Virus record (IMG/VR): IMGVR_UViG_3300048858_000024
Coordinates: 1-45,289 of that record
Reading direction: 5' to 3' (one strand)
Length of the DNA stretch: 45,289 nt
Origin: a virus
Taxonomy: Duplodnaviria > Caudoviricetes
Shown here: in pieces, positions 1,344 through 40,039 of the stretch
How positions within the stretch are numbered: position 1 is the first letter of the stretch
Layout of the letters: every line of letters begins with the position of its first letter
The notes under the pieces: generated by a model
Told to the model about the DNA's origin: nothing
What the model saw: the letters and a program-made list of their open reading frames with translations, nothing else
Database searches by the model: none
Program-made: the position numbers and the translations under genes

Positions 1344-1498
1344 TGCTTCTTCCTGAAATCCTGAGCTGCCTTCACGATGGCATCGTAGGCTCCGCATTCG
1401 ACAAGTAGATCCTGCTCCTCGGGAGACAGCTGGATCGTTTTGCGCTGGTCGAGCTTCTTCTCGAACTTGCGCTGTAGGTCGGTGGGATGGACCGTCAT
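1193..1498 (-). CDS. Hypothetical protein in excisionase position
   Basis: ATGA-coupled to upstream MTase; C-terminal tail overlaps int start; function is positional inference only. Confidence 0.55.
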   Translation of the reverse strand: MTVHPTDLQRKFEKKLDQRKTIQLSPEEQDLLVECGAYDAIVKAAQDFRKKQCRERSARNRSISGASSSSTPARAGTMKLSGTTKPPNANEALARAQQMLK

Positions 1499-2157
1499 TG
1501 CGCCTGCTCTTGTGTGTGGTTGGGGTGGTCAGGGGTGTCGGGCGCGGGATAGTCTCCGGCGCGCTCAAGCTTCTTCCGGCACGGCGCGATCCAGCGCAGT
1601 TTCGTATCGCCCTCGCGATTGGCCCATACGAGCCAGGCATAGGCGGTCGCGGTTGATCCCTCTGGGGCTAGCCGGCCCTTGTGCATTACAACGCGCTCGG
1701 TGAACTGCAGGACGTGGCTCGGCGGGGTCTTGGCGAACAGCCGCTGGAATCGCCCCTGCCCTTCCAGGAAGGCCGCGCGCACGATCATCGCCACGCCGCC
1801 ACTGGTCGCCAGTGCGCGTTCGATGAACTGCTCGGCGAGCCGGAACGGCGGGTTGGTGATCGTCCAGTCGACCGGCGCCGGCATTGTGCCGAACAGGTAA
1901 TCCTGCACCGGATAGCCGGCGCCGTAGTCGTAGGCATCCGCCGCTTCGACCTGGTAGAAATACTCCATCAGCGGCTTGACCATGTGCCCGCGATTTGCAG
2001 CCGGCTCGCGGCAGATCAGACCTTCGATCTCGTGGCCTTCCGATCGCAGCCAGCTGCAGAGCGCGCGCGTTGCCCAGGGCGGTGTCGGAAAGTCGTCGAG
2101 CGAGTCCTTTGCCTCGCGCCGTTGCTGCACGACTGCTGAGCTTGTGTTCTGGCTCAT
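1495..2157 (-). CDS. Orphan DNA amino-methyltransferase (NPPF type)
   Basis: DFPTPPW, EPAANRGHM (SAM-binding motif I-like), DYL, ITNPPF catalytic motif IV. Confidence 0.85.
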   Translation of the reverse strand: MSQNTSSAVVQQRREAKDSLDDFPTPPWATRALCSWLRSEGHEIEGLICREPAANRGHMVKPLMEYFYQVEAADAYDYGAGYPVQDYLFGTMPAPVDWTITNPPFRLAEQFIERALATSGGVAMIVRAAFLEGQGRFQRLFAKTPPSHVLQFTERVVMHKGRLAPEGSTATAYAWLVWANREGDTKLRWIAPCRKKLERAGDYPAPDTPDHPNHTQEQAQ

Positions 2158-10622: not shown

Positions 10623-11282
10623 CTATAGCTCGCGGCCAATCCAGATCGCACGCCCCTCAATCGTCAGGTCCTGCAGATCAACTAGCATAGGGTCGAAGTC
10701 ATCCTTGTTCTCGGAGATGACTTCCACTTTGCCGCCCGGCGCCGGACGCAAGCGCTTGAGCCCATGTGCGCCATAGAGCGTGATCCAGTAATAGCCGTCG
10801 ATCCGAGTGAGGTTCCGCTCGGTTGTGTCTACCAGGATGCGGTCGCCCGTATAGAACTTCGGCTCCATGCTGTTGCCGATGCCTCGAACGATGCGAAGGC
10901 GATGGTACGGCGACCGGGTGATCGTCCGCAGCAAGCCGATGTCGAACTCGACAGGCTCGCTTTCTACGAACTCCTCGATCGGAGTGCCCGGCCCCATTGA
11001 AAGCGACAGATCCAAGGACACGATAGGCGTTGTTTCGCCTTCTGAGGCCCCTTTCACGGGCACCTGATCTGGCGCGAGATTGATGGGCACGGCAGAGTCG
11101 AGCAGCAGGTGCGGCTCCATGGCAAGCGCATTGCCAAGCTTCTCCAGCCAGACCGTATCGAGCTTGCGGTCTCCACGCTCGAGCTTGCCGAGCATGTTGA
11201 GCGTTGTTCCAATCCGATCAGCTAGGTCGCTCTGAGAGAGCCCAGCGCGCTTACGGTAATATGCGATGTTGTTGCCGGACAT
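10623..11282 (-). CDS. cI: CI-like repressor (XRE HTH + S24 peptidase)
   Basis: RKRAGLSQSDLADRIG...LERG HTH; GNSMEP (Ser) and LKRL (Lys); divergent from cro; start set at MSGNNIAY. Confidence 0.92.
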   Translation of the reverse strand: MSGNNIAYYRKRAGLSQSDLADRIGTTLNMLGKLERGDRKLDTVWLEKLGNALAMEPHLLLDSAVPINLAPDQVPVKGASEGETTPIVSLDLSLSMGPGTPIEEFVESEPVEFDIGLLRTITRSPYHRLRIVRGIGNSMEPKFYTGDRILVDTTERNLTRIDGYYWITLYGAHGLKRLRPAPGGKVEVISENKDDFDPMLVDLQDLTIEGRAIWIGREL

Positions 11283-11289
11283 AACGCCC

Positions 11290-11372
11290 ATGTGCCCAAC
11301 TAGGGCAGAGAACGATAGAGGACGGGTGGGGCACATTTGCCCCTTGCGCGATGTGCCCAGATAGGGCATATC
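11290..11372. promoter_or_regulatory. OR operators and PR
   Basis: ATGTGCCC-AACTA-GGGCAGAG (11290-11310), half-site GGGCACAT (11329-11336), ATGTGCCC-AGATA-GGGCATAT (11351-11371); TTGCGC-N17-CATATC ends 7 nt before the cro ATG, implying a leaderless mRNA. Confidence 0.8.
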
Positions 11373-11379
11373 AGGGCGC

Positions 11380-11586
11380 ATGAAACTGCTCGACTATCTC
11401 CAGGCCGAAAAGCTGCCTGTCTCGGAGTTCGCTGCGCGCGTCGGTGTAGCGGATAACACCATCCGCAAGATCGTCTACGGTCAACGCCAGCCCTCCTTGC
11501 CGCTCGCGGTGAAGATCAGCGAGGCGACGGGCGGCAAGACGCGGCCGAGCGACCTGATCGTCGAGCAGCGGGATGCAGCCGCATGA
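11380..11586 (+). CDS. cro: Cro-like HTH protein
   Basis: 68-aa HTH ([23 protein letters not shown]...ATGGKT), divergent from cI. Confidence 0.88.
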
Positions 11587-11894
11587 TCGGCCTCACCCAT
11601 AAGCAGAGAGACTGCCTCTCCTTCATCCGTGCCTACATGGCCGAGCACGGCATTTGCCCCAGCTACCGGGAGATGCGGGAGGCTCTGGCCCTGAAGAGCA
11701 CCAGCGGCTCCGCGCGCTTGGTCCTGGCTCTGGAAGAACGAGGTCATATCCGCCGACTTCCTGGACGGGGCCGCGCGATCGAGATCGTCGAGCACAATCC
11801 GCTCGCTGACGTATCGACATCAGCGATTGTCAAAGAGCTTGTGCGTCGGCGCGACATGACTGCCGGGTCGATCGTTTCGGCGATCAACGCATGA
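11583..11894 (+). CDS. LexA DNA-binding-domain-only protein
   Basis: LTHKQ...PSYREM...[30 protein letters not shown] matches the alphaproteobacterial LexA N-terminus; no peptidase domain. Confidence 0.85.
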
Positions 11895-12985
11895 GCGTCC
11901 AGATCCTCATCGGTGACGCACGCGAGCGCCTCAAGGAATTGCCGGCTGCAAGCATCGATTCCTGCGTCACCGATCCGCCCTATCATCTCACCAGCATCGT
12001 AAAACGCTTCGGCGCTGCCGATGCTGCGCCGGTCAAGGCAGGTAAGACCGGCGCTTATGCTCGCGCTTCGCGCGGCTTCATGGGCCAGACTTGGGATGGC
12101 GGCGACGTTGCCTTTCAGCCTGATACTTGGGCCGAAGTCTGGCGCGTTCTCAAGCCTGGCGCTCATCTGGTCGCCTTCTCGGGCACCCGCACTTATCATC
12201 GTATGGCCTGCGCCATCGAAGATGCTGGCTTTGAGATCCGCGATCAACTCGCGTGGGTCTACGGTTCCGGCTTCCCCAAGTCGCACAATCAAGCTGGTGG
12301 ATGGGGTACCGCGCTCAAGCCCGCTTGGGAGCCGATCGCCTTCGCCCGCAAGCCGTTGGCCGGGACTGTCGCCGCGAACATGGCTGTCCACGGTACCGGC
12401 GCGATCAACATCGACGGCTGCCGGATCGACGCAACGGACAATAAGACGTTCGCTCGTGACGCGGGCGATCGATCGCGCGAGCAGTATCGCACTGGCACGA
12501 CGATCGGTGGCGCGATTCCGACTGACCAGGGACGCTGGCCCGCCAACATCATTCATGATGGCAGCGCAGAAGTGCTCGCCGCTTTCCCTACCGTCGCATC
12601 CGGCACGCCCTCTGGCATCAAGGCCGGTGGCAGCAAGAACGTCTACGGCGACTTCGCGGGCGGTATCCCCGTCACTGGATACGGCGATGAAGGTTCGGCA
12701 GCGCGGTTCTTCTACTGTGCCAAGGCCACCAGCGAAGAGCGCGGCGAAGGCAACACGCATCCGACCGTCAAGCCAATCGAGCTGATGCGCTGGCTCTGCC
12801 GCCTCGTCACCCCCGCTGGCGGCACCGTACTCGATCCATTCACCGGCTCCGGCTCCACTCTGGTCGCCGCCGATATGGAGCAGTTCAGTGCGATCGGCTG
12901 CGAGCTGTCGGCTGACTTCGCCGCGATTGCTGAACGCCGCGTCCGCGCCTCTGCCGGCATGTTCGCTCAAGTGGAGGCTGCATAA
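11891..12985 (+). CDS. Orphan DNA methyltransferase (beta class, N6A/N4C)
   Basis: TDPPY precedes HPTVKP and [10 protein letters not shown]. Confidence 0.92.
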
Positions 12986-19377: not shown

Positions 19378-19459
19378 GCTTCTCAGGATGAACCGAACCC
19401 CGCCAAAAGAGCGGAATTTCCCGAAAACGACAGCAAAGCGACCAGAAACCTGAACCGCG

Positions 19460-19500
19460 CAACAATATTACGGGGGGGGTATCCGAAAGTTGCCGTCCTT
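19460..19500. other. Candidate cos region
   Basis: G-run (CGGGGGGGGT) between HNH and terS, the usual cos position in HK97-like phages; exact site unknown. Confidence 0.4.
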
Positions 19501-19566
19501 CGGCCTCTGGACCGCTCTGGGACCACAAATCTCGCGTTTGCAGATTGATTGTCTGAGGTGACCAAT

Positions 19567-19968
19567 ATGGCGACGCGAGGAGCGAAGCCGAAACCGGCCC
19601 GTTTGCGACTGGTCGACGGCACGAACAATGTAACCCGGCATGGTCCTGAGGAACAGACCCGCAAGGTTGCTGAGAGCGCAGACACACTGTTCGGTAAGCC
19701 GAGTATGCCCGCGGGTATGAAGGGCGAGGCTGCAAAAGCTTGGAAGAGATACATCGTGCCTGCCGCCTGGATCGACGGATCACGGGAGGCTGCGGCTATC
19801 GCGTTCTGCGAGCTGTGGCAGGAATTCCGGTTTGCGCCGACTTCCTTCCCCGCATCGAAGCATGGCCAGATGCGCGCCTACATGAGCGAGCTTGGCCTTA
19901 CCGACGAACGGAACAGGTCGGATCATGGCAAGGAAAAGCCAGAAGACGAGTTCTTCGGCGCCGACTGA
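19567..19968 (+). CDS. terS: Terminase small subunit
   Basis: RGAKPKPARLRLVDG N-terminus; SELGLT; precedes terL. Confidence 0.85.
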   Translation: MATRGAKPKPARLRLVDGTNNVTRHGPEEQTRKVAESADTLFGKPSMPAGMKGEAAKAWKRYIVPAAWIDGSREAAAIAFCELWQEFRFAPTSFPASKHGQMRAYMSELGLTDERNRSDHGKEKPEDEFFGAD

Positions 19969-27541: not shown

Positions 27542-28009
27542 ATGACCGTGTTTACCTCGGCCGGAACGACGCTGGCCATCTCGGCAGCTGCGCCCGCCAC
27601 CTACAACGAAGCTGGCTACGAAGCCCTGACCTTCACCTCGATCGGTGAAGTCAGCGATCTCGGTGACATTCCGAGCCGCGTCTACGACGTGGTGAACTGG
27701 CGGAACATCGCTAACCGCGGGGATAGCAAGGCCAAGGGCGGCTACACCTTGGGCTCGCAGACCATCACGGTTGGTATCGATCCCGATGATGCCGGACAGG
27801 CCCTGATCGACACCGCGACGAACTCGGACGACGCCTACTCGATCAAGATCAGCAACCCGAACCTCGGCGACATCTACGCGCGTGCCCTCGTCATGGGCGG
27901 TGCGCGCAACTACGGTGATGTGAACACGATCGCGACCCGCACAATCGTGCTGGAATATACGATCGTCAGCCAGACCGAGGACGGCCTGGTCTACGTCGCT
28001 GCCGCGTAA
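27542..28009 (+). CDS. Major tail (tube) protein
   Basis: Position between tail terminator and chaperones; IGEVSDLG, KAKG, DPDDAGQ. Confidence 0.85.
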   Translation: MTVFTSAGTTLAISAAAPATYNEAGYEALTFTSIGEVSDLGDIPSRVYDVVNWRNIANRGDSKAKGGYTLGSQTITVGIDPDDAGQALIDTATNSDDAYSIKISNPNLGDIYARALVMGGARNYGDVNTIATRTIVLEYTIVSQTEDGLVYVAAA

Positions 28010-28111: not shown

Positions 28112-28534
28112 ATGACTTTTGACATCACCCGCAAGCGCGTTGCCGAAACGGCCAAGATTGAATTGACGGACGGCGACGGCGCCCCGCTGCTCGACGACGA
28201 AGGCACCCGCCTCACCGTCACCCTCTGCGGCCCCGGCTCCAAGACCTGGCAGCAGGCCGATGCTGAGCGTTCGCGCCGGCAAGCAAGCCGCGCCGAAAAG
28301 AACCCGCGCAAGATTGCCAGTGCCATCGCCGATCATCGCCGCGACGACGAGATCGACTTCCTGGTGGCGATTACCGTGAGCTTCAATGGCTGGACCTATC
28401 CCGGCGAGTACCCCTCGCAGCGCGACATGTTCAAGGCTGCGTACTCGGATGACAGCATCGGCTACATCCGCGACCAGCTCTCGAAAGAGGGCAATGACTG
28501 GTCGGCGTTCGCGCAGGGAAACTCGAAGCCCTAA
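28112..28534 (+). CDS. Tail assembly chaperone (gpG-like)
   Basis: Position; ends just after slippery site G-GGA-AAC. Confidence 0.82.
   Translation: MTFDITRKRVAETAKIELTDGDGAPLLDDEGTRLTVTLCGPGSKTWQQADAERSRRQASRAEKNPRKIASAIADHRRDDEIDFLVAITVSFNGWTYPGEYPSQRDMFKAAYSDDSIGYIRDQLSKEGNDWSAFAQGNSKP
28516..28522 (+). other. -1 programmed frameshift site GGGAAAC
   Basis: X-XXY-YYZ heptamer in the correct phase; -1 frame reads GKLEALTLYARQ... into 28537-28974. Confidence 0.85.
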
Positions 28535-28974
28535 CCTTGTACGCTCGGCAGATGGCTTGGCTTCATACCGCGCCTGAATCCGAGCATACGGGCAAGGGCA
28601 AGCAGCCCGATCCGGTCACCCGCGTGAAGGCGATGGAGGGCCGGGGAGAGCATCCACGCTTCCCCCCGGTTGCTCACCAGTACCTTGTGCGCTGGTGGCT
28701 CGACATTGGGCCGACGATGCCGGCAGGAATGGGCGATGCCCCCCTGCCCTTGCGGTACATAGCGGACGAGATGGGAACGCTTGGCGTCGATATTGGGCCA
28801 TGGGAGGCCCAGGCGATCCGGGCGATGTCTCGGGCCTTCATCTCAGAGCGGCATGAGGCTCGAAAGCGTGGGCACCCTGCGCCGTATAGCGAGGAACTGC
28901 CTAAGGAAGTGCAGGACCGGGTTACTTCGCAGTTTGCGGCTCTGGTTGCTGCGATGGGGCGGCGGAAGGGCTAG
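28516..28974 (+). CDS. Tail assembly chaperone frameshift extension (gpT-like)
   Basis: Open -1 frame with no clear RBS; WEAQAIRAMS. Confidence 0.78.
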   Translation, partial: GKLEALTLYARQMAWLHTAPESEHTGKGKQPDPVTRVKAMEGRGEHPRFPPVAHQYLVRWWLDIGPTMPAGMGDAPLPLRYIADEMGTLGVDIGPWEAQAIRAMSRAFISERHEARKRGHPAPYSEELPKEVQDRVTSQFAALVAAMGRRKG

Positions 28975-29410
28975 GCTCCGGCTTAGCATCTTCTAGAATG
29001 CGCGTGAGGTCTGCGCTGGTCTCAGGTTCACGCGTTGCGGTTTGGCCGAACAGGCTTGTCTCTTCAGTGAAGATGCCCGCTTGCACGCGGACACTCTTTC
29101 CTAAAGGTATCAGAGTGAAGCGCACTAAGGAGCGGGCCTCAATTCGGCGCCGGCTGAAGGCGGCAACGCGCTGGTAAAGCAAAGACATCTCGCGGTCCTC
29201 GCAGGTTACGACCGGCGCCTCTGGCGATATGACAATCCATTTCCGCTCGACGCACGCGGTTGCGAACTGCGCCGCAAGAGCGGGCAGATCAGTACCGACG
29301 TACTCAGCTTCAGCAATTCCTTTGCGTGTATCTGCGGCGTGTGCTGCGCCGGCGCCGAATGAAGCCGCAGCGCAAAGTCCGGTCGCCACTACGGCGGTAC
29401 ATAGCCTCAT
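28922..29410 (-). CDS. Exported protein (moron), opposite strand
   Basis: Signal peptide ending AHA-A; two Cys in mature part; GAGG RBS. Confidence 0.7.
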   Translation of the reverse strand: MRLCTAVVATGLCAAASFGAGAAHAADTRKGIAEAEYVGTDLPALAAQFATACVERKWIVISPEAPVVTCEDREMSLLYQRVAAFSRRRIEARSLVRFTLIPLGKSVRVQAGIFTEETSLFGQTATREPETSADLTRILEDAKPEPSPSAAPSQQPEPQTAK

Positions 29411-32500: not shown

Positions 32501-34436
32501 CTCAGCCAGCGCCAACATCACCGGCATCAATAACACCAGCGTCTCGGGCAAGGACCGGGCACAGTACGGCGCAGCGAATGACCTCGCTGGCAGCGTAACG
32601 TCGGGCCTAAAGCAAATCGCAGACGCGTTCGGTGCGACGGTAGGCGCTTTCCAAGTAGCCATCGGCGTCCGCGGGGATCAGATCAAGGTCAACACTTCGG
32701 GCAGCAGCCTCAAGACCGGTGCTGGCGCGAAAGGCTTTGGCGAAGACGCAGAAGCAGCCGCGCGCTACGCCATTCTCGACGCGATTAAGGACGGCGCGTT
32801 GTCGGGCATGCGTGAGGGTGCAAAGCGCCTTCTGGAATCCGGTAAGGACCTGGATGCCGCGCTGCAGGACGCCCTCGCCTTCAACAGCGTCTTCGACCAA
32901 CTGGAGCAGCTGAAAGATCCCACTGGCTTCGCGCTGAAGCAGCTCGACAAGGAGCTGACGGAACTGCGGGACAACTTTGCTCGAGCCGGTGCATCGGCAG
33001 CGGAATATGCGCAGCTTGAGGAGCTTTACGGCATTAAGCGCGCAGAGGTGTCCGAGCAGACGAAGGACGCGACGGATGCCTTGGAACTGGAGCGCACCCG
33101 GCGCGGCATGGAAGCCGAACTGCTACGCCTCTCTGGTGACGAGATCGCGGCTACCGCAATTGCCCGGCAGCTTGAGCGCGAACAGCTCGAGCCCTCCCTG
33201 CAGGCCCTCTACGATCAGATTGCCGCCAAGCAGGACGAGATTGCTGCGAACGAAAAGCTGACCGCCGCGCAGGAGGAAGCGAAGGCAGTGGCAGATGCGG
33301 CCGCTCAAGCCGCGGTCGAAATCCAGAAGGCACGCACCTCGCTGCAGATCGAATTGCTCGAAGCTCAGGGCAAGGCGGAAGAAGCGCTCGCCCTCACCCG
33401 CCAGCAGCAGCTGGCCGACATGGATCCGCTGCTGCGCGGTCTGCAGCAACAGATCTGGGCGGCACAGGAAGCCACCAAGGCCCAGCAGGGCCTGGCCGAA
33501 GCACAGAAGGCAGCTGCTGATGCTGCTGATGCGGCACGGGAAGCTCAGCAAGCTGCGGCGAATGGCCTTGTGAGCCTGCGTGAGCGTCTCCTGCAGGCCC
33601 AAGGCAACGATGCCGGCCTGCGCGAACTGCAGCGAGCACTCGAATGGGAAAAGGCCTCTGCGGCCGAGCGCGAGGCTATGGAGCAGATCTACAAGGCCGA
33701 GGACGCGGCTCGCAAGGCGGCAGATGCAGCAGCCGCCCGGGCAGCACGTCAGCAGGCAGCCGAGGAAGCCGCAGCCAAGGCGGCCCAGCTTCGGGAGAGC
33801 CGCACGCGCCTTGAGATCCAACTCATGGAGGCCCTGGGCGACAAGACCGGCGCCCTTAAGAAGCAGCGGGAGCTTGAACTCGCCGGCATGGACGCGAGCC
33901 TGCGCGGATTGCAGCAGCAGGTGTGGGCCGCGCAGGAAGCTGCGGCAGCCGCAGAGAAGTGGCGCGATCTGGGCAAGAGCCTGCGCGAGTACCGGAACGA
34001 GCTGACGGCGGGCGATCTGGCTACGGCCAACGCCTACCGCAATGCGCAGGTCGCCTTCATGACGACGAGTGCTCTGGCACGCGCCGGCGACGAAGCGGCG
34101 ATCGGCAAACTGCAGGGCGTGAGCCAGTCGTTCCTGGATGCCTCGCGATCGAATGCTGGTTCGCTCGAGCAATATCAGCGCGACCTCGCTGCAGTGCTGC
34201 GCTCGGTCGACGACACGCTCGACTACACGGATGGCCAGATCGACACGGCTCAGGCCCAGCTGGATGCGATCTCCAAGGGGAACAACATTCAGACTGAGGT
34301 TCGGGACCAGATCGCTGGGCTTCGGGCTGAGAACAAGGCCGCCCAGACTGCCATGGCGATTGCGCTCGACCGCATCCGCGTCCTGAACGAAGGCGAGGAT
34401 GGCGACGGTGTGCTTCGGGTCAAGGTGGAGGCCTGA
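29538..34436 (+). CDS. Tape measure protein
   Basis: 1632 aa, Ala-rich helical; QFSDIG...GMNPLMIAIQQGPQL lambda-type TMP motif. Confidence 0.95.
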   Translation: MAGGVPAGRLSIEIVAEVARLTQDLQRVKGLVNAASGEIAKSARAANDNLAAIGKGAGAGVQQFSRDVAALKAQLDPAWASMQKYRQAVDVAKTALQQGAITHQQYVQALRQAADAAGLLKAKQAEAAVAANAEADALRKVNSQLAEQAQLHAAIQRNTGAGRGKATDAGAGYSALAAKFLEDEARAAQSAAAAQKRLADEHERLAAAVRNSHAAQVADAAAAERLREATDPLYAATKRLNAEIAESTRLYHAGATAPAEYARQQMVLNQSVKQVGTSLKLTARDGLNLSRQFSDIGVTAAMGMNPLMIAIQQGPQLLDIFQEKAIATGTTIGAVAKAAGAQIWAAVAPLLPILAAVAAAAALIGSAFALGAREINKGNKSVIDGMGLTEKQLERVKKAGTETGVTIGDTFFAFFEVVGDRLTSAFDGPLKWLKDAWDGTLNFITTYGSKAIELIVGGFVGGVYAIKAAWKILPAAIGDIVTSAANVTLSGIEWMINKTINGLNGLIDLANQAAAKVGMAGFDRLQNVQVGKIDNPYAGQADALGSAVSDGFSQGLSESKGMLNRFWADVAKESRNNARARIRKAAGEAEKARKGPKTEAEKFADLVADVQRQIAMLEAQRKALALSDDAALLLTNQQKLLNDAQAKGIHITEQQHAVLMALADQLTEAQIALRKAQNLKAANEGYATQVRAIEQAGEQIGVYGKELTALTAYQELLNKATNGGKDALDDLTDARLRGKAATIADKQAANDNRKFMEDLIVNTEAMQRAMEAERGGLGLTGAALHAYRFEQEALEKARQDHIDLTPAQIDAIKATGAAFGEMRQEIDNAASRLDALASALGNMKGLGPLGQLMGILTSGDPTAALLGSGGLGTLAGIFTKGGQDAYKKQAEIISDGLKSVFPELGDTLAGTLSGALQGVGIGGAVGGVLGGGKTSQLGSQLGGAIGQAVGTKLLSSLGAAAGPVGAIGGALLGAVAGDLMKGILNPNRSASANITGINNTSVSGKDRAQYGAANDLAGSVTSGLKQIADAFGATVGAFQVAIGVRGDQIKVNTSGSSLKTGAGAKGFGEDAEAAARYAILDAIKDGALSGMREGAKRLLESGKDLDAALQDALAFNSVFDQLEQLKDPTGFALKQLDKELTELRDNFARAGASAAEYAQLEELYGIKRAEVSEQTKDATDALELERTRRGMEAELLRLSGDEIAATAIARQLEREQLEPSLQALYDQIAAKQDEIAANEKLTAAQEEAKAVADAAAQAAVEIQKARTSLQIELLEAQGKAEEALALTRQQQLADMDPLLRGLQQQIWAAQEATKAQQGLAEAQKAAADAADAAREAQQAAANGLVSLRERLLQAQGNDAGLRELQRALEWEKASAAEREAMEQIYKAEDAARKAADAAAARAARQQAAEEAAAKAAQLRESRTRLEIQLMEALGDKTGALKKQRELELAGMDASLRGLQQQVWAAQEAAAAAEKWRDLGKSLREYRNELTAGDLATANAYRNAQVAFMTTSALARAGDEAAIGKLQGVSQSFLDASRSNAGSLEQYQRDLAAVLRSVDDTLDYTDGQIDTAQAQLDAISKGNNIQTEVRDQIAGLRAENKAAQTAMAIALDRIRVLNEGEDGDGVLRVKVEA

Positions 34437-34437
34437 T

Positions 34438-35313
34438 ATGCAGTTTATCCGCCCCGTATCGATCGACGATGATGCCAAGCTGATCGCGTCATCCGTTCCT
34501 GAGACCGCGCCGCTCTACAACCCGGCCACCAGTTATATGGCAGACGAAGAGGTTCGCGTTGGCCATCTGATCTACAAGAGCGCGGCGGGCAACAACGTTG
34601 GCCATCCAGTAACCGATCCTGCCTGGTGGCTTGGACCCAAGTTCAGCAATCGTTGGGCAGCTTTCGACGGCGTCAACGCCACCAAGACGGTCGCCGAGGA
34701 GGTCTCCTTCACGGTGCGCCCTGGTCAGCTTATCGACAGCCTGGCTCTGCTCGATGTTTCTGCAACGGCGGTCACGGTTGTGGCGGTCAGCGCAGTGCAG
34801 GGCGAGGTCTACAACAAGACCTTCCTGCTATCCAACGAAGTGCCCGAGTCCGACTTCTGGGTCTGGTTCTTTGAGCCGATCGTGCGCAAGAAAGTCCTGT
34901 TCGTTCCAGACTTGCCGATGATGGCCGACCTCGACGTGACCGTCACCTTGGAAGGCGACAACCAGTCACTCGCCACCTTCTCGATCGGCAACCTTTGGAC
35001 AATGGGCGGGACGGAGTACGGCGCTGAGATCGGCATCGACGATTATAGCAAGTACATCGACAATGGCTTCGGTGACGAAACGCTGATCCAGGGTGCCTAC
35101 TCCAAGCGCGGCAACTTCACCGTCTACTGCAGCAAGGATGTTGCCGACGCGACGGCCGATGTTCTCACAGAATACCGCGCTACCAACCTGGTCTGGATCG
35201 CTAGCAAAGAGTTCAACTCGACGGTGATCTTTGGCTACGCGAAGTCGTGGCGAGCGGTGATCTCCTACCCGACGATCTGGGTCTACTCTCTCGAAATTAA
35301 GGGGCGCACTTGA
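34438..35313 (+). CDS. Tail-tip structural protein
   Basis: First gene after TMP; YNPATSY...IYKS carbohydrate-binding-like insert; GIDDYSK...FG. Confidence 0.7.
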   Translation: MQFIRPVSIDDDAKLIASSVPETAPLYNPATSYMADEEVRVGHLIYKSAAGNNVGHPVTDPAWWLGPKFSNRWAAFDGVNATKTVAEEVSFTVRPGQLIDSLALLDVSATAVTVVAVSAVQGEVYNKTFLLSNEVPESDFWVWFFEPIVRKKVLFVPDLPMMADLDVTVTLEGDNQSLATFSIGNLWTMGGTEYGAEIGIDDYSKYIDNGFGDETLIQGAYSKRGNFTVYCSKDVADATADVLTEYRATNLVWIASKEFNSTVIFGYAKSWRAVISYPTIWVYSLEIKGRT

Positions 35314-35633
35314 TGGCCTTCACCACGATTCCCACGCCACCGCCGACCCCGGCTCGCAACCAAGATCCCGAGACCTTCAACGTCCGGATCGCAGCTTTCC
35401 TGGCGTTCTTCGCCTCGCTCACCGAAGCGCTGAATTCCTACGCATCAGAAGTGCCCGGAGAGGTTGACACGGCAATAGCCGATGCCGTCGCCGCCTACGA
35501 CCCTGATGGCCAATACTCCGCAGTCCAGATCGACGGCTTCCTCGCGGCGAAGGCGGACAACTCTCGCATAACCGTCAGCACCGCGCCCCCATCGGGCGGC
35601 GTCGACGGCGACATCTGGTTCAAGGTGGATTGA
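35313..35633 (+). CDS. Tail-tip / fibre anchor protein
   Basis: PPPTPAR..PETF N-terminus; STAPPSGGVDGDIWFK C-terminus typical of fibre joints. Confidence 0.65.
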   Translation: MAFTTIPTPPPTPARNQDPETFNVRIAAFLAFFASLTEALNSYASEVPGEVDTAIADAVAAYDPDGQYSAVQIDGFLAAKADNSRITVSTAPPSGGVDGDIWFKVD

Positions 35634-35636
35634 GCG

Positions 35637-36305
35637 ATGACAACCGCCGTTTTCCACGATGGTCTATGGAAGGAACCTCAGGTGATCTACGCAAAGCATG
35701 ACGGCGTCTTCAAAGAGGTCGCCGCGCCTGCGCTGCGGCTGATCGGAGCGCAGTATGTATCGTCAAATAGCCTGACGCTAACCCCTTGGGAGACGCTCAA
35801 GGAGGGTGACCTGATTGTCCTCTTTGCGGGTCGCAACGACACGAATGGCGCGATCTCCACCCCTGCCGGGTTCACGCAGATCAAGACCACCAGCGTCGGT
35901 ACGAGCGATCGCCTTTCCGCTTTCTTTCAGTTCGTTGGTGACACACCGATCGCCGCGATTACGGCGCCGAGCGCCCAGACACTCCACGCTTTGGTTTACC
36001 GCGGCGCAGCGGGGATCGGTGTCTCCGCGCAGAACGTGGTCGCTGGCAATGTGGCTACACAGACAGTCACCGTTGCCGTGCTGACCGAAGGTTCATTGGT
36101 CGCCGCCGGCACGCCTTTCGTCAGCCAGTTAGCCGGCCCATCGGGGGCGCTGAACCTTGGCTTCTCCCGGCCTAACGGAGCAGGCATCGCGGCCACGACG
36201 CTCGGGCCCGTTCCTTCTACTACCACCTCCCTGACCCCCTCCTTCACCATGACATCGGCGACGAGGCCGACGAACATGATCGCCGTGGAGATCCTCACGA
36301 AATGA
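35637..36305 (+). CDS. Putative receptor-binding/fibre protein
   Basis: DGLWK...YAKHDGVFK N-terminal adaptor; beta-rich GDLIV...TPAGFT domain. Confidence 0.6.
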   Translation: MTTAVFHDGLWKEPQVIYAKHDGVFKEVAAPALRLIGAQYVSSNSLTLTPWETLKEGDLIVLFAGRNDTNGAISTPAGFTQIKTTSVGTSDRLSAFFQFVGDTPIAAITAPSAQTLHALVYRGAAGIGVSAQNVVAGNVATQTVTVAVLTEGSLVAAGTPFVSQLAGPSGALNLGFSRPNGAGIAATTLGPVPSTTTSLTPSFTMTSATRPTNMIAVEILTK

Positions 36306-36823
36306 CTTACGCTCTCGTGGTCGACGGCCAGATCAGCAAGCTGGGGCCGCGTCCGTCCTGGCGTATCGGTGAGACGTTCGAGAACTCTCGACCGCTTACT
36401 GATGAGGAGCTTGCCGAACGTGGCTGGTTCTGTGTGGCCGCCGCACCCGCGCACAACCCGGACACGCACAAGCTGGTGGAAATCCCCCTTGCCGAATGGA
36501 CAATTGGAAGCGCCACAGTTGGCCCGCAGTTTCGTGCGGTGCCGCTTACTGCCACTGAACTGATTGAGCGCGCCGAACAGCGCCGCCTAGCCGCCCTGCC
36601 TAGCCCTGTAACCACGCGCCAGGCCAAGCTAGCGCTGCTCGCGGCCGGGTTGCTGGATCGGGCAGAAGCGGCTGCTCATCAAGCTGGTCGTGCTGCTCAG
36701 ATCGAGTGGGAATATGCGACCGAGTACCAGCGCGACAACCCATTGATCGGCGCTATCGGCGAAAAGCTCGGGCTCACCGAAGAGCAGATCGACGACCTGT
36801 TCCGGGATGCTGCGGCACTGTGA
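36302..36823 (+). CDS. Tail-fibre-associated chaperone-like protein
   Basis: VTTRQAKLAL...IEWEYA...LGLTEEQIDDLF..A motif. Confidence 0.7.
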   Translation: MTYALVVDGQISKLGPRPSWRIGETFENSRPLTDEELAERGWFCVAAAPAHNPDTHKLVEIPLAEWTIGSATVGPQFRAVPLTATELIERAEQRRLAALPSPVTTRQAKLALLAAGLLDRAEAAAHQAGRAAQIEWEYATEYQRDNPLIGAIGEKLGLTEEQIDDLFRDAAAL

Positions 36824-36859
36824 GCCAGGCTGCCACCTAGCCGCCTAGGAGACCACATA

Positions 36860-37384
36860 ATGACGGTGACTACGTCGGCGGGGACCATCTTCGCCTTGAG
36901 CGCGGCTGCGCCTGCCACATTCGACGATGAGGGCTACGAGGCACTTGTCTACACTGAGGTAGGAGAGGTCGGCGACCTGGGCGATCTGCCCACGAAGGTT
37001 TTCGAAATCGTGCCCTGGCGTAACATCGCGAGCCGCGGTGAGACGAAGGCCAAGGGCGGGTTCTCCTACCCTCCGCAGACAATAATGGTCGGCTTTGATC
37101 CTGACGATGCCGGCCAAGCGCTGCTGACCGTCGCGACCGAACAGGACAACTTCTACACAGTCCGCATCTCGCACCCGAACCTCGGTGACTTTTACGGGCG
37201 CGCTCTTGTCATGGGCGGGCCGACCAACCTGGGCGACGGCAGCGTGGTCGCGACCCGGCAAGTGACGCTTGAGTACGTGGATGCGCTGTACGTGAGCCCT
37301 GCCCCGCTCATTCCGGCCGGCATTCTCGGGCTCGGCAATCTTATCCTCGGCCTCAACGGCTTCGATCTGGGAATTGCAGCATGA
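36860..37384 (+). CDS. Second tail-tube paralogue with C-terminal extension
   Basis: 86/139 identical residues to 27542-28009 by hand alignment without gaps; AGGAG RBS. Confidence 0.88.
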   Translation: MTVTTSAGTIFALSAAAPATFDDEGYEALVYTEVGEVGDLGDLPTKVFEIVPWRNIASRGETKAKGGFSYPPQTIMVGFDPDDAGQALLTVATEQDNFYTVRISHPNLGDFYGRALVMGGPTNLGDGSVVATRQVTLEYVDALYVSPAPLIPAGILGLGNLILGLNGFDLGIAA

Positions 37385-39174
37385 CCTTCACTGTACGGGA
37401 CGCAAACGGCAATCCAGCTCCTGCTTCGCCTGAGCAGATCGCGCAAATTCAGGCCGAGTTGGCCATTCCTACGACCGCCGCTGACATCGACGCAGCGGGT
37501 GGCCTCACGAAGGAACAGGCCGCTTCCGGCCAAGGTGTCCTCGCCTCTGGGCTGGCTCCGGGGAGCGAGGCGGATGTGCGGGTCGGTGAGCTTGAGGAAG
37601 GCGCGGCGAGCATTCCGGTCGCGGTCATCGAAGCGGTGCAAGCGCGAGACCAGGCAGTCGCAGCAGCAGCAACCCCGGCCCTAGCCATCCAGAAAGACCC
37701 GGCCACCCCAACCGTACCGCCTGCAGGTGTTGCGAGCGGCAGCCAGTATTGGGCCGCAGTGGCTGATGGCCTCCAGCTTTACCTCAACACCGGGGGTGTT
37801 GGTGCGCCGGTGAGTCCGGCTGTGGTGCAGTATGGGAAGGCGGCGGTAGATGCCATCGCTAGCAGAGTACCGACTGGTCGATACTACTTCGAGGGTAAGC
37901 AGGTTGTCTCGGCCATCGTCGATGACAAGCTGATTCCTACTGAAGTCACTTTTATCAACTACACGCATGTCAACCGCGCAAAGCCGTTTGGGCCGACATA
38001 TGTGGAAAGCCTTGCTCTGCAGGATTGGGGCATCAGCCCTGGTGAGCGGTACTATCTGGCCGGACGCCAAGTTGATTACGCCACGGTCAGCCGGAACCTA
38101 CAGCCAAGCGAAGCCCGATTCTTGGATGGCTCCCCCTACAAGCCGCCAGCGCCCGCAGATTGGGCTCAAATATCTGGTGATGGTCGGCAATACGTTGGTT
38201 ATGGCGAAGTCGGCTTCGCGGTCGTCGATAAGGATAGCCGGGTTGCCAGCGCGGTCTTTCAAGACGGTTCCGGCTACGATCCCACTGCCAGTGTCACAGC
38301 AGCAGTCGGAGATCCAATCCTTTGTAATGGCGACAGTCTCACCGCAAGCAATTACCCAGAGGCTCTTGCGGCGCTAACAGGCCGAGAGGTATTCAAGCTC
38401 GCCATGGGGGGGCAAACGAGCCGACAGATCGTCGGGCGGGCTTCGGCTGTCGCGTACAGGCTTACGTTGAGCGGCGACCAGATCGTCGCCGGGGCTAATA
38501 GTGTTACAGCTATCAATGGACAACCGATCCAGGGCTACACCTCGCTGGACAATACAAACGTCCAGTTCCTCTCCACGCCGCAGAACAGCTCGCCTTTAAG
38601 TGCAACCGGTTTCTTGGGTGCTGTACATGGAACGCTGACAAGATCCGCATCTGGCGGCATTCCATCTACTGCGGAAACGTATAGTTTCGTCCCTGATGCG
38701 GGCTATCCCCTTCCGCTCAAGCTCCAGCCAGAGACACCGTTTATCGTTGATCTTAACAAAGACAACTGGGTGGTCATCAATTGGATGGGTTCCAACAATA
38801 AGAGTGACTTCACGCAGGTCATGGCCGATTTTGACGCGGTTTACCGCCGCTTCGGGCCTGATCGGTTGGTCTTTATCGGCCCCTTGGGGAACGCCAACGA
38901 TATTATCGGCTCGACCGGGCATGGTTACACTCAAGCGATCCAAAATGCGCTCGCGGAGAAGTATCCCCGCAACTTCTTGCCGTTGAGGCGGCAGTTGATT
39001 GACTTGGCGCTGTCGGAGCTTGGCCTCCAGCCCACCAATCAGGACTTGATCGACCAAGCTAATGACATCCTCCCAGCGCAGCTACGCAGCGATGAGGTCC
39101 ACCCAACCGCTTTCGTGAACACCAATTTCATCGCCCCTAAAATAGCGGCATTTCTTACAATGAAGGGTCTCTAA
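37381..39174 (+). CDS. Tail-associated SGNH/GDSL hydrolase (esterase spike)
   Basis: Blocks GDSLT, GGQTS, GSNN, DEVHP; N-terminal structural part with three RYY-type repeats. Confidence 0.82.
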   Translation: MTFTVRDANGNPAPASPEQIAQIQAELAIPTTAADIDAAGGLTKEQAASGQGVLASGLAPGSEADVRVGELEEGAASIPVAVIEAVQARDQAVAAAATPALAIQKDPATPTVPPAGVASGSQYWAAVADGLQLYLNTGGVGAPVSPAVVQYGKAAVDAIASRVPTGRYYFEGKQVVSAIVDDKLIPTEVTFINYTHVNRAKPFGPTYVESLALQDWGISPGERYYLAGRQVDYATVSRNLQPSEARFLDGSPYKPPAPADWAQISGDGRQYVGYGEVGFAVVDKDSRVASAVFQDGSGYDPTASVTAAVGDPILCNGDSLTASNYPEALAALTGREVFKLAMGGQTSRQIVGRASAVAYRLTLSGDQIVAGANSVTAINGQPIQGYTSLDNTNVQFLSTPQNSSPLSATGFLGAVHGTLTRSASGGIPSTAETYSFVPDAGYPLPLKLQPETPFIVDLNKDNWVVINWMGSNNKSDFTQVMADFDAVYRRFGPDRLVFIGPLGNANDIIGSTGHGYTQAIQNALAEKYPRNFLPLRRQLIDLALSELGLQPTNQDLIDQANDILPAQLRSDEVHPTAFVNTNFIAPKIAAFLTMKGL

Positions 39175-39175
39175 A

Positions 39176-40039
39176 ATGGCTAATTCTCTTTTGTTCAAGT
39201 CGCCGACTTCATTCGCCGCTGATCGCCCTGTACTCACTAAAGACCCGATGATCCGGCCCGGTTCGAAGTTTACTTTCGACTTCACGGACGCGCGTTGCCA
39301 CCCTGGCGGCGTGATCACGCAGGGAGCAGTCGCGGCGGGTGCCAAGTTCGCATCACTCGATGCCGCGCCCGTCGAGGCATCTCTTGGCGGAACCAACCCC
39401 GGTATTACAGTAGCTGCTGATGGCTCCATCGTCTTTGATGGAACCGGAGGTTCGGGGCAGTTTCTCCAGATCGGCACCGTGGGGCAGTTCGACATGAGCA
39501 CCGCACCTTACGAGATGGTGTTCATTGCGCACTTGAAAGTCCCGGCCTCTGGTTACACGGCCACGGACAGTTGGAATTTGATGCGCAGTGGCGGCACTGC
39601 CAACGAAAGCCAGTTCTACTTGGGCATGGGCACTGGCGGCTTGGTCCCCCGGTTCTCGGTCGGCAACGGTAGTGGATCGTCGGGCGGCTCGCCTACACTC
39701 GGCAACATCACGCCTGGACAGATCATCCAGCTTGGCGTGCGGTTTGATCCCGGTGCCTATATCGGAAACTTCCGCGATGGCTCGCCTGTCGGCACGCCTT
39801 CTACGTCCGGGGTTACATCGACACTGGGCGCCAACCAGACCTATGGCATCAACTTCCTGAACGTCGGAAAATACACTCTCTCGCGCGTTGAGTTGGTCAA
39901 CATCGATGCGTCTCTCGCCAAGGAAACCGTATGGGGCCTTGCTGACGCCGACAAGCTATCTGCCGCGATGCACATCCAGCGCGACTACCAGTTTTGCAAG
40001 AACTTGCTGACTGCCGCTCCGAAGGTGCCGTTTGCATAA
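39176..40039 (+). CDS. Beta-rich Gly/Ser/Thr protein (lectin-like?)
   Basis: Follows SGNH gene by 1 nt; fold is a guess from composition. Confidence 0.65.
   Translation: MANSLLFKSPTSFAADRPVLTKDPMIRPGSKFTFDFTDARCHPGGVITQGAVAAGAKFASLDAAPVEASLGGTNPGITVAADGSIVFDGTGGSGQFLQIGTVGQFDMSTAPYEMVFIAHLKVPASGYTATDSWNLMRSGGTANESQFYLGMGTGGLVPRFSVGNGSGSSGGSPTLGNITPGQIIQLGVRFDPGAYIGNFRDGSPVGTPSTSGVTSTLGANQTYGINFLNVGKYTLSRVELVNIDASLAKETVWGLADADKLSAAMHIQRDYQFCKNLLTAAPKVPFA

Follow-up and report, generated by a model that had tools for sequence, protein, structure and literature searches.

A diverged second tail-tube gene in a siphophage, with a three-repeat peptide predicted to seat a neighbouring putative esterase

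Introduction

The closest described systems are siphophages that carry a plain and an extended tail-tube subunit in one phage: SPP1 (gp17.1/gp17.1*) and the lactococcal 936 group (MTP-TpeX), where the extension is dispensable in SPP1, whose two forms mix 3:1, and binds host sugars in TpeX (PMC8718954, PMC6669499). There a frameshift yields both forms from a single gene, with a binding domain fused on as the extension, whereas the locus analysed here has a separate diverged gene and an enzyme cargo that is predicted to be held by a peptide. In T5 a duplicate of the tube gene encodes p140, which makes up a single ring and by its C-terminus holds the p132 collar, so helping to mount the side fibres (PMC10038345). 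The p140 protein is 9% identical to its tube protein, occupies one fixed ring, occurs family-wide and needs the collar protein; in contrast, the copy described below is 62% identical to its main tube protein, patchily distributed and apparently of repeated origin, with no collar gene seen.

Other virion proteins resemble parts of the present system. In Mu, a gp48 loop about 23 residues long holds the trimeric fibre gp49 by its N-terminus, but this loop sits in a myophage baseplate wedge protein (PMC11915804). The epsilon15 gp20 petal esterase removes O-acetyl groups from the O-antigen (bioRxiv 10.64898/2026.07.31.742079) and, like SGNH receptor-binding proteins of Klebsiella prophages (PMC13123978), has an SGNH fold with an inserted subdomain, as is predicted for the protein studied here; those proteins are tip spikes, however, whereas ours has no beta-helix match and a different anchor. 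The carbohydrate esterase gp84 of phi24B is another virion enzyme that is not at the tip: it decorates the capsid (bioRxiv 10.64898/2026.04.10.717836), where it is bound to the hexons via its own N-terminal domain and not via a tube subunit. In the papers compared, tail-tube decorations are passive binding domains, fused or frameshifted, and the esterases of virions are tip or capsid proteins.

Results

Two tail-tube genes in one phage

The window, by which we mean the whole stretch of 45,289 bases that was analysed, is a whole virus record with terminal repeats and the gene order of an HK97/lambda-like siphophage. The nearest named relatives of its tube proteins belong to Novosphingobium and Sphingobium prophages, which points to a sphingomonad host. 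An integrase-like gene (75-1640) and a repressor-like gene (10623-11381), neither with an NCBIfam match, were recognised by eye, as were, by motif, DNA methyltransferase-like genes at 1495-2157 (- strand) and 11891-12985 (+ strand). Promoter and terminator scans gave results at chance level.

The main tube gene (27542-28009, + strand; 155 aa; phrog_158 major tail protein, E 1e-8) lies in the usual place, 5' of chaperone-like and tape-measure genes, with the tape measure (PF06791) downstream and a slippery site, GGGAAAC at 28516, inside the gene next after the main tube gene. A 162-aa gene (28922-29410, - strand) with a signal-like start and no family match, possibly a moron, separates the chaperone genes from the tape measure. 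The second tube gene (36860-37384), about 9 kb downstream of the first, also matches phrog_158, and BLASTP reproduced the gapless match to the major tail gene that a first-pass annotation of this DNA had counted by hand (86/139 identical, 62%; 0 gaps; E 1e-67; tube domain residues 1-139, 36860-37276, + strand). Its own ribosome binding site (AGGAG, 36847-36851, + strand), its different, longer C-terminal tail and its ATGA overlap with a 597-aa gene (37381-37384) are likewise present as that annotation had described. The window system would work like SPP1 and TpeX, yet it differs from them since the frameshift that defines them is replaced by a separate gene with its own ribosome binding site, and XXXYYYZ sites are absent both from the end of the main tube gene and from the junction of copy and cargo.

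The tube domain of the second copy was modelled by AF2 with pLDDT mostly >90 (mean pLDDT 86) as a beta-sandwich with one helix and a long inter-ring hairpin, the lambda gpV fold, and in Foldseek lambda-type tube proteins rank first (lambda gpV, TM 0.68, E 5e-7; 9mfe, 8k36 and 7t2e, TM 0.64-0.68). An assembly artefact is unlikely, given the synonymous divergence between the copies and the same layout in a related prophage (L008). Viral contigs scanned with the second-copy protein alone, or with the esterase part of its neighbour alone, gave no matches.

The copy had been placed after the fibre genes; the position holds, and the upstream genes are only weakly fibre-like by PHROG (304 aa, phrog_6278, unknown; 107 aa, weak tail-fibre match; 222 aa, no PHROG match; 173 aa, unknown). 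The interval after the tape measure (34399-36823) holds only the 304-aa protein and three small genes, with no hub or central-fibre gene recognisable by PHROG and no PDB match. Several relatives have a further, partial match to this 304-aa gene directly upstream of the gene itself.

The adjacent cargo genes

The 597-aa fibre-like protein (37381-39174, + strand) consists of an anchor, a stalk and a putative SGNH esterase with an inserted subdomain (about residues 313-597). It matches phrog_11419 (tail fibre, E 6e-37), and residues 327-588 align with a solved tailspike esterase domain, the tail spike of PDB 9SIJ/9SIM (E 5e-7). The SGNH catalytic set (Ser, Gly, Asn, His, Asp-x-x-His; blocks I, II, III and V) is present as GDS at 317-319 (S319), G344, N473 and D571/H574, of which all except S319, which precedes the aligned stretch, are aligned to the solved chain. 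The spacing of Gly, Asn, Asp and His in 9SIJ equals that of G813, N937, D1035 and H1038 of epsilon15 gp20; from this spacing 9SIJ is probably gp20, whose four residues would thus align with those of the window cargo. The ESM Atlas model of the protein falls in SGNH clusters (TM 0.74 by target), and single-sequence AF2 gave pLDDT 35. The open reading frame has no Pfam or NCBIfam match, but the first-pass assignment as an SGNH hydrolase agrees with the motifs, the solved-structure match and the Atlas clusters. The enzyme would likely strip acetyl or other acyl groups from a host surface polysaccharide, the substrate being our inference.

Stalk residues 89-157 are 78% identical to those of a homologue (P0127) with a different head, and the cargo genes have a GC3 of 0.62-0.69 vs 0.82-0.84 for the capsid and main tube genes, which together suggest a swapped head. 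The downstream gene (39176-40039, + strand) encodes a 287-aa protein with no Pfam, PHROG, HMM or PDB match; the beta-rich character given to it earlier can be narrowed to a likeness to LamG-like jellyrolls, by ESM Atlas model features only (7/30 matches, 0.97, PF13385 cluster). It is likely a LamG-type carbohydrate-binding partner of the esterase and may attach to it.

The three-repeat peptide and the complex model

The extension of the second copy, previously described as hydrophobic, proved to be an ordered peptide of three 7-residue repeats centred on L156-G157, L163-G164 and L170-G171 (residues 155-174 plus the stop codon, 37322-37384, + strand). The same pattern ends seven close homologues of 167-204 aa (P0002, P0003, P0018, P0031, P0073, P0075 and P0078) and also occurs in L127 and L128, which belong to a tube subfamily only about 36% identical and whose tail is close to that of P0002, so that the peptide either moves between lineages or is strongly constrained. 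A tail-only profile recovered only its own training sequences among 11,711 ORFs of the fetched loci (4 matches; 1 in shuffles), and among 301 genomes only G142, with the remainder at E above 0.002. An opposite-strand ORF of the window (19383-19754, - strand), missed by this profile, contains PFIPAGILGL (cf. PLIPAGILGL in the tail), probably a chance likeness.

The peptide has low confidence when modelled alone by AF2 and is ordered in a model of the complex, for which the input was the tail peptide and three copies of cargo residues 1-160, with a trimer assumed and our own 9-row alignment. Three runs scored 0.66, 0.66 and 0.62, and the best of three controls 0.01; the score mark is reached by 116/157 solved and 2/215 mismatched pairs, a calibration that is rough here as the job, with three copies, is unlike it. 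The runs have at least 85% of contacts in common, with partner pLDDT of at least 69. The predicted interface on the cargo comprises residues 1-15, 19, 22-23 and 26 in three copies, and the N-terminal strand and helix (residues 1-26, 37381-37458, + strand) are the predicted peptide socket: one peptide would bind three N-termini, with strand F3-T4-V5 of each subunit pairing with a repeat of its own, and cargo helix 19-26 would pack on the peptide leucines. Cargo residue 4 of copies 2, 1 and 3 contacts tail residues 157, 164 and 171 in the model, i.e. one repeat per subunit. Compared by sequence with solved chains in the PDB, neither the tail nor the cargo start showed likeness (best E 0.26 and 1.4), and neither a known docking-loop nor a gp9/10 N-terminal domain sequence (Mu-type, T4-type) was found in them; PF07880 (T4 gp9/10) is absent from the window cargo. 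The docking of the esterase on the extension, as proposed in the first-pass annotation together with a complex model as its check, is supported as a prediction by the controlled model, trimer assumed, and by the fusion of tube copy and esterase in relatives.

Split and fused pairs in relatives

Two copies within one prophage occurred in 2/50 records, in 6/50 further records (one cut at the contig end) and in four prophages from 3 of the 21 genomes that matched among 401; another 401 genomes, 10 of them matching, added no new genome with a second copy. These rates are rough because the records are redundant and many are incomplete. In cultured phages the match was to a single place each (9/9 and 30/30 records), and a sequencing-run search listed one DNA run, possibly the source, and no RNA run. 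With a second copy in only 2/50 and 6/50 records, the copy appears to be dispensable. Twelve pairs including the window were compared; G482 (22 residues at a contig end) counts in the 6/50 and not among the pairs, and G029 (two equal-score matches 40 kb apart) and G041, G042 and G349 (different contigs) were left out.

In all 12 pairs the second copy is the longer one, and in the 11 prophages other than the window it is fused to its cargo in five and split from it in six. The fusions carry GDS and D..H motifs behind a Pro-Thr linker (L129), a GQSN motif (L171), a cargo with no SGNH match (L172), GH5 (L203) and Calx-beta, cut (L209). The split copies end in the three-repeat peptide (L008, L127 and L128, as in the window), in other short tails (L086, L137), or in a longer extension, the cargo behind it having a T4 gp9/10-type virion anchor, PF07880, at its start (L130). 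GDSL-type Pfam matches or motifs were found in the cargo of L008, L127, L130 and L137, and the L086 cargo has a tail-fibre PHROG match only. L127, where the tail is followed by a separate 494-aa GDSL-like gene, and the fused L129 occupy the same place before the plain tube gene, with cores 87% identical.

As to the co-occurrence that the first-pass annotation suggested surveying, a paralogue with downstream or fused cargo recurs; of the four peptide-type copies with known neighbours, two lack a directly adjacent esterase. In L008 a 123-aa gene intervenes; in L128 (8444-9539) a copy with an intact docking tail is followed by the plain tube gene, with no adjacent cargo, and the contig ends in the tape measure. 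The same genome contains a second prophage, L127, whose cargo could supply L128 in trans; a search of the genome for another match to this cargo gave none.

Six copies lie behind the tip genes (window, L008, L086, L171, L172 and L137), those of L127-129 precede the main tube gene, and those of L130, L203 and L209 come after the lysis genes. With cargoes and gene positions differing between relatives and cargo GC lower, the idea of a swappable module is supported. Beyond the pairs, tube-first fusions to GDSL (P0196, P0221), SASA (P0232), GH16 (P0218), LamG (P0152) and GH5 (L226) were found, and among the best 150 of 1,627 profile-matched representatives twelve tube domains lie in proteins of 292-1,464 aa (our own count of proteins with long C-terminal additions), several of which carry GDSL, SASA, GH16, LamG or Calx-beta domains.

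Further arrangements were noted. In Falsirhodobacter sp. 1013 (L114, 1217-6724) one run of genes encodes a tube copy, a fibre of 670 aa, a beta-rich protein of 264 aa and a sulfatase of 711 aa that carries RTX-type calcium repeats, and the 264-aa protein after the cargo looks like the 287-aa protein of the window. At two loci (L108, 1706-2646; L088, 9353-10261) a pair of tube-like genes lies in tandem, both of normal length and lacking extensions. Genes behind second copies in L226 (11488-12705) and L229 (7010-7582 and 7585-9822) have, by eye, signal-peptide-like starts, and the 190-aa protein of L229 continues like the first residues of the window cargo (TRDANGN vs VRDANGN).

Divergence of the second copies

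Between the window copy and its main gene dS is about 1.0 and dN/dS 0.32 (Nei-Gojobori, with GC bias that will understate dS), which indicates an old duplicate under selection; decay or a very recent duplication is ruled out by these values. Second copies generally show dN/dS of 0.15-0.40 at dS 0.7-1.3 and are under purifying selection. They are 60-76% identical to their own main copy, with a median to all 167 tube proteins of 33-46%, and the own main copy ranks first of 167 in 5/12 pairs and at most 13 in all; the window copy is closer to the L003 tube protein (70%) than to its own main (62%, rank 10 of 167). On a quick tree (129 rows, 146 columns, 85/155 single copies kept) the second-copy label needs 9 changes, at least 6 by starred branches, and a single clade of second copies is rejected (AU p 8e-10; 10 vs 22 rows, with L128 and L129 left out as near-copies). 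This nesting within lineages and the rejection of one clade suggest that the arrangement arose several times, or that copies were re-matched to the local tube gene. In the window lineage the peptide-type copies cluster (support 87, not starred). With this grouping, and with the window's own main gene ranking only tenth, the cassette seems also to travel among close relatives.

Ten pairs were compared by region with matched main-main pairs, with totals matched so that gains and losses are coupled, and with surface labels assigned by analogy to lambda gpV. The N-arm was kept above expectation in 9/10 pairs and strand 61-69 in 8/10, and strand 119-131 was also kept better than expected. The inter-ring hairpin (40-60) was conserved as expected (5/10 pairs above expectation), and strand 132-139 (2/10), helix 84-97 (1/10) and loop 15-31 (0/10) were less kept.

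Discussion

We consider it probable that the second copy is a minor tube subunit whose peptide seats one trimer of the neighbouring esterase, which likely deacylates host polysaccharide. The copy would join the growing tube among the main subunits, its last strand would lead outward to the peptide, each peptide would seat one esterase trimer, and the seated trimer would deacylate host polysaccharide during approach. Entry into the tube is indirectly suggested by the selection on the copy, its kept N-arm and its match to the resident lineage, and a low copy number by its being a separate gene 9 kb downstream. With a tube copy whose peptide is predicted to grip the esterase, the phage likely mounts the enzyme on the side of its tail, and the arrangement recurs, split or fused, in relatives.

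The strongest competing explanation, which we regard as unlikely, is that the copy has a single ring of its own, at the tip or neck end of the tube, which carries up to six esterase trimers, as T5 p140 does with its collar; this arrangement has the docking step in common with the minor-subunit explanation. The p140 precedent of a tube-gene duplicate in a single ring, with its C-terminus holding the fibre collar, speaks for it, as do the lack of a PHROG-recognisable hub or central-fibre gene after the window tape measure and the position of six copies after the tip genes, and a homo-ring would explain the outer-surface divergence equally well. However, p140 is far more diverged from its tube protein than these copies and lies in the tip module, whereas the copies are missing from most relatives and occur in three gene positions, two of them away from the tip genes (ahead of the main tube gene and behind the lysis genes), and their N-arm is kept and their hairpin not eroded.

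It is improbable that the copy enters the tube with a different partner on its tail, or with its frame linked to the next by frameshifting, and that the esterase is attached at another site. L128 without adjacent cargo would fit such a different partner, as would cargo N-termini that have no clear common sequence after the tails, and the cargo frame is open for 36 codons upstream of its ATG; but no XXXYYYZ site was found at 6/6 junctions, the tails of all paralogues stop at similar positions, and the model, so much above its controls, uses a free cargo N-terminus. Least probable of all is that the pair is no part of the virion tail, acting after release at lysis as free rings or tubes that bear the enzyme, or as a lysogen product, since three copies after lysis genes and signal-peptide-like starts in neighbour genes of relatives (L226, 405 aa; L229, 190 and 745 aa; by eye) would agree with this, but a free particle need not match the resident tube lineage as 12/12 copies do, the window cargo has neither a signal-like start nor its own promoter match upstream, and the L130 cargo starts with a virion anchor.

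Returning to the tube-borne minor subunit, a wider generalisation can be put forward tentatively, and we hold it somewhat more doubtful than not: alphaproteobacterial siphophages may repeatedly duplicate their own tube gene for an enzyme-armed shaft with interchangeable mounts, namely direct fusion, a T4 gp9-type socket and a 20-residue three-repeat trimer-capturing peptide, such that polysaccharide-modifying cassettes are swapped without touching the tip.

A search of mostly open-access literature listed no description of an enzyme carried or docked by a separate paralogue of the tube protein, and the accessible parts of papers on JBD30, PVC, Bas63, phiCbK and Nocturne116 describe no second tube gene of such kind. 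New here are the split form with its three-repeat socket and controlled model, the split and fused pair at one locus and the test for repeated origin. The small, testable peptide-trimer socket, as predicted, could serve as a display tag. If the proposed mounting is true, a separate, lineage-matched, enzyme-mounting tube subunit would add a route for host-range change, and genes annotated as a 'second major tail protein' would mark receptor-modifying cassettes.
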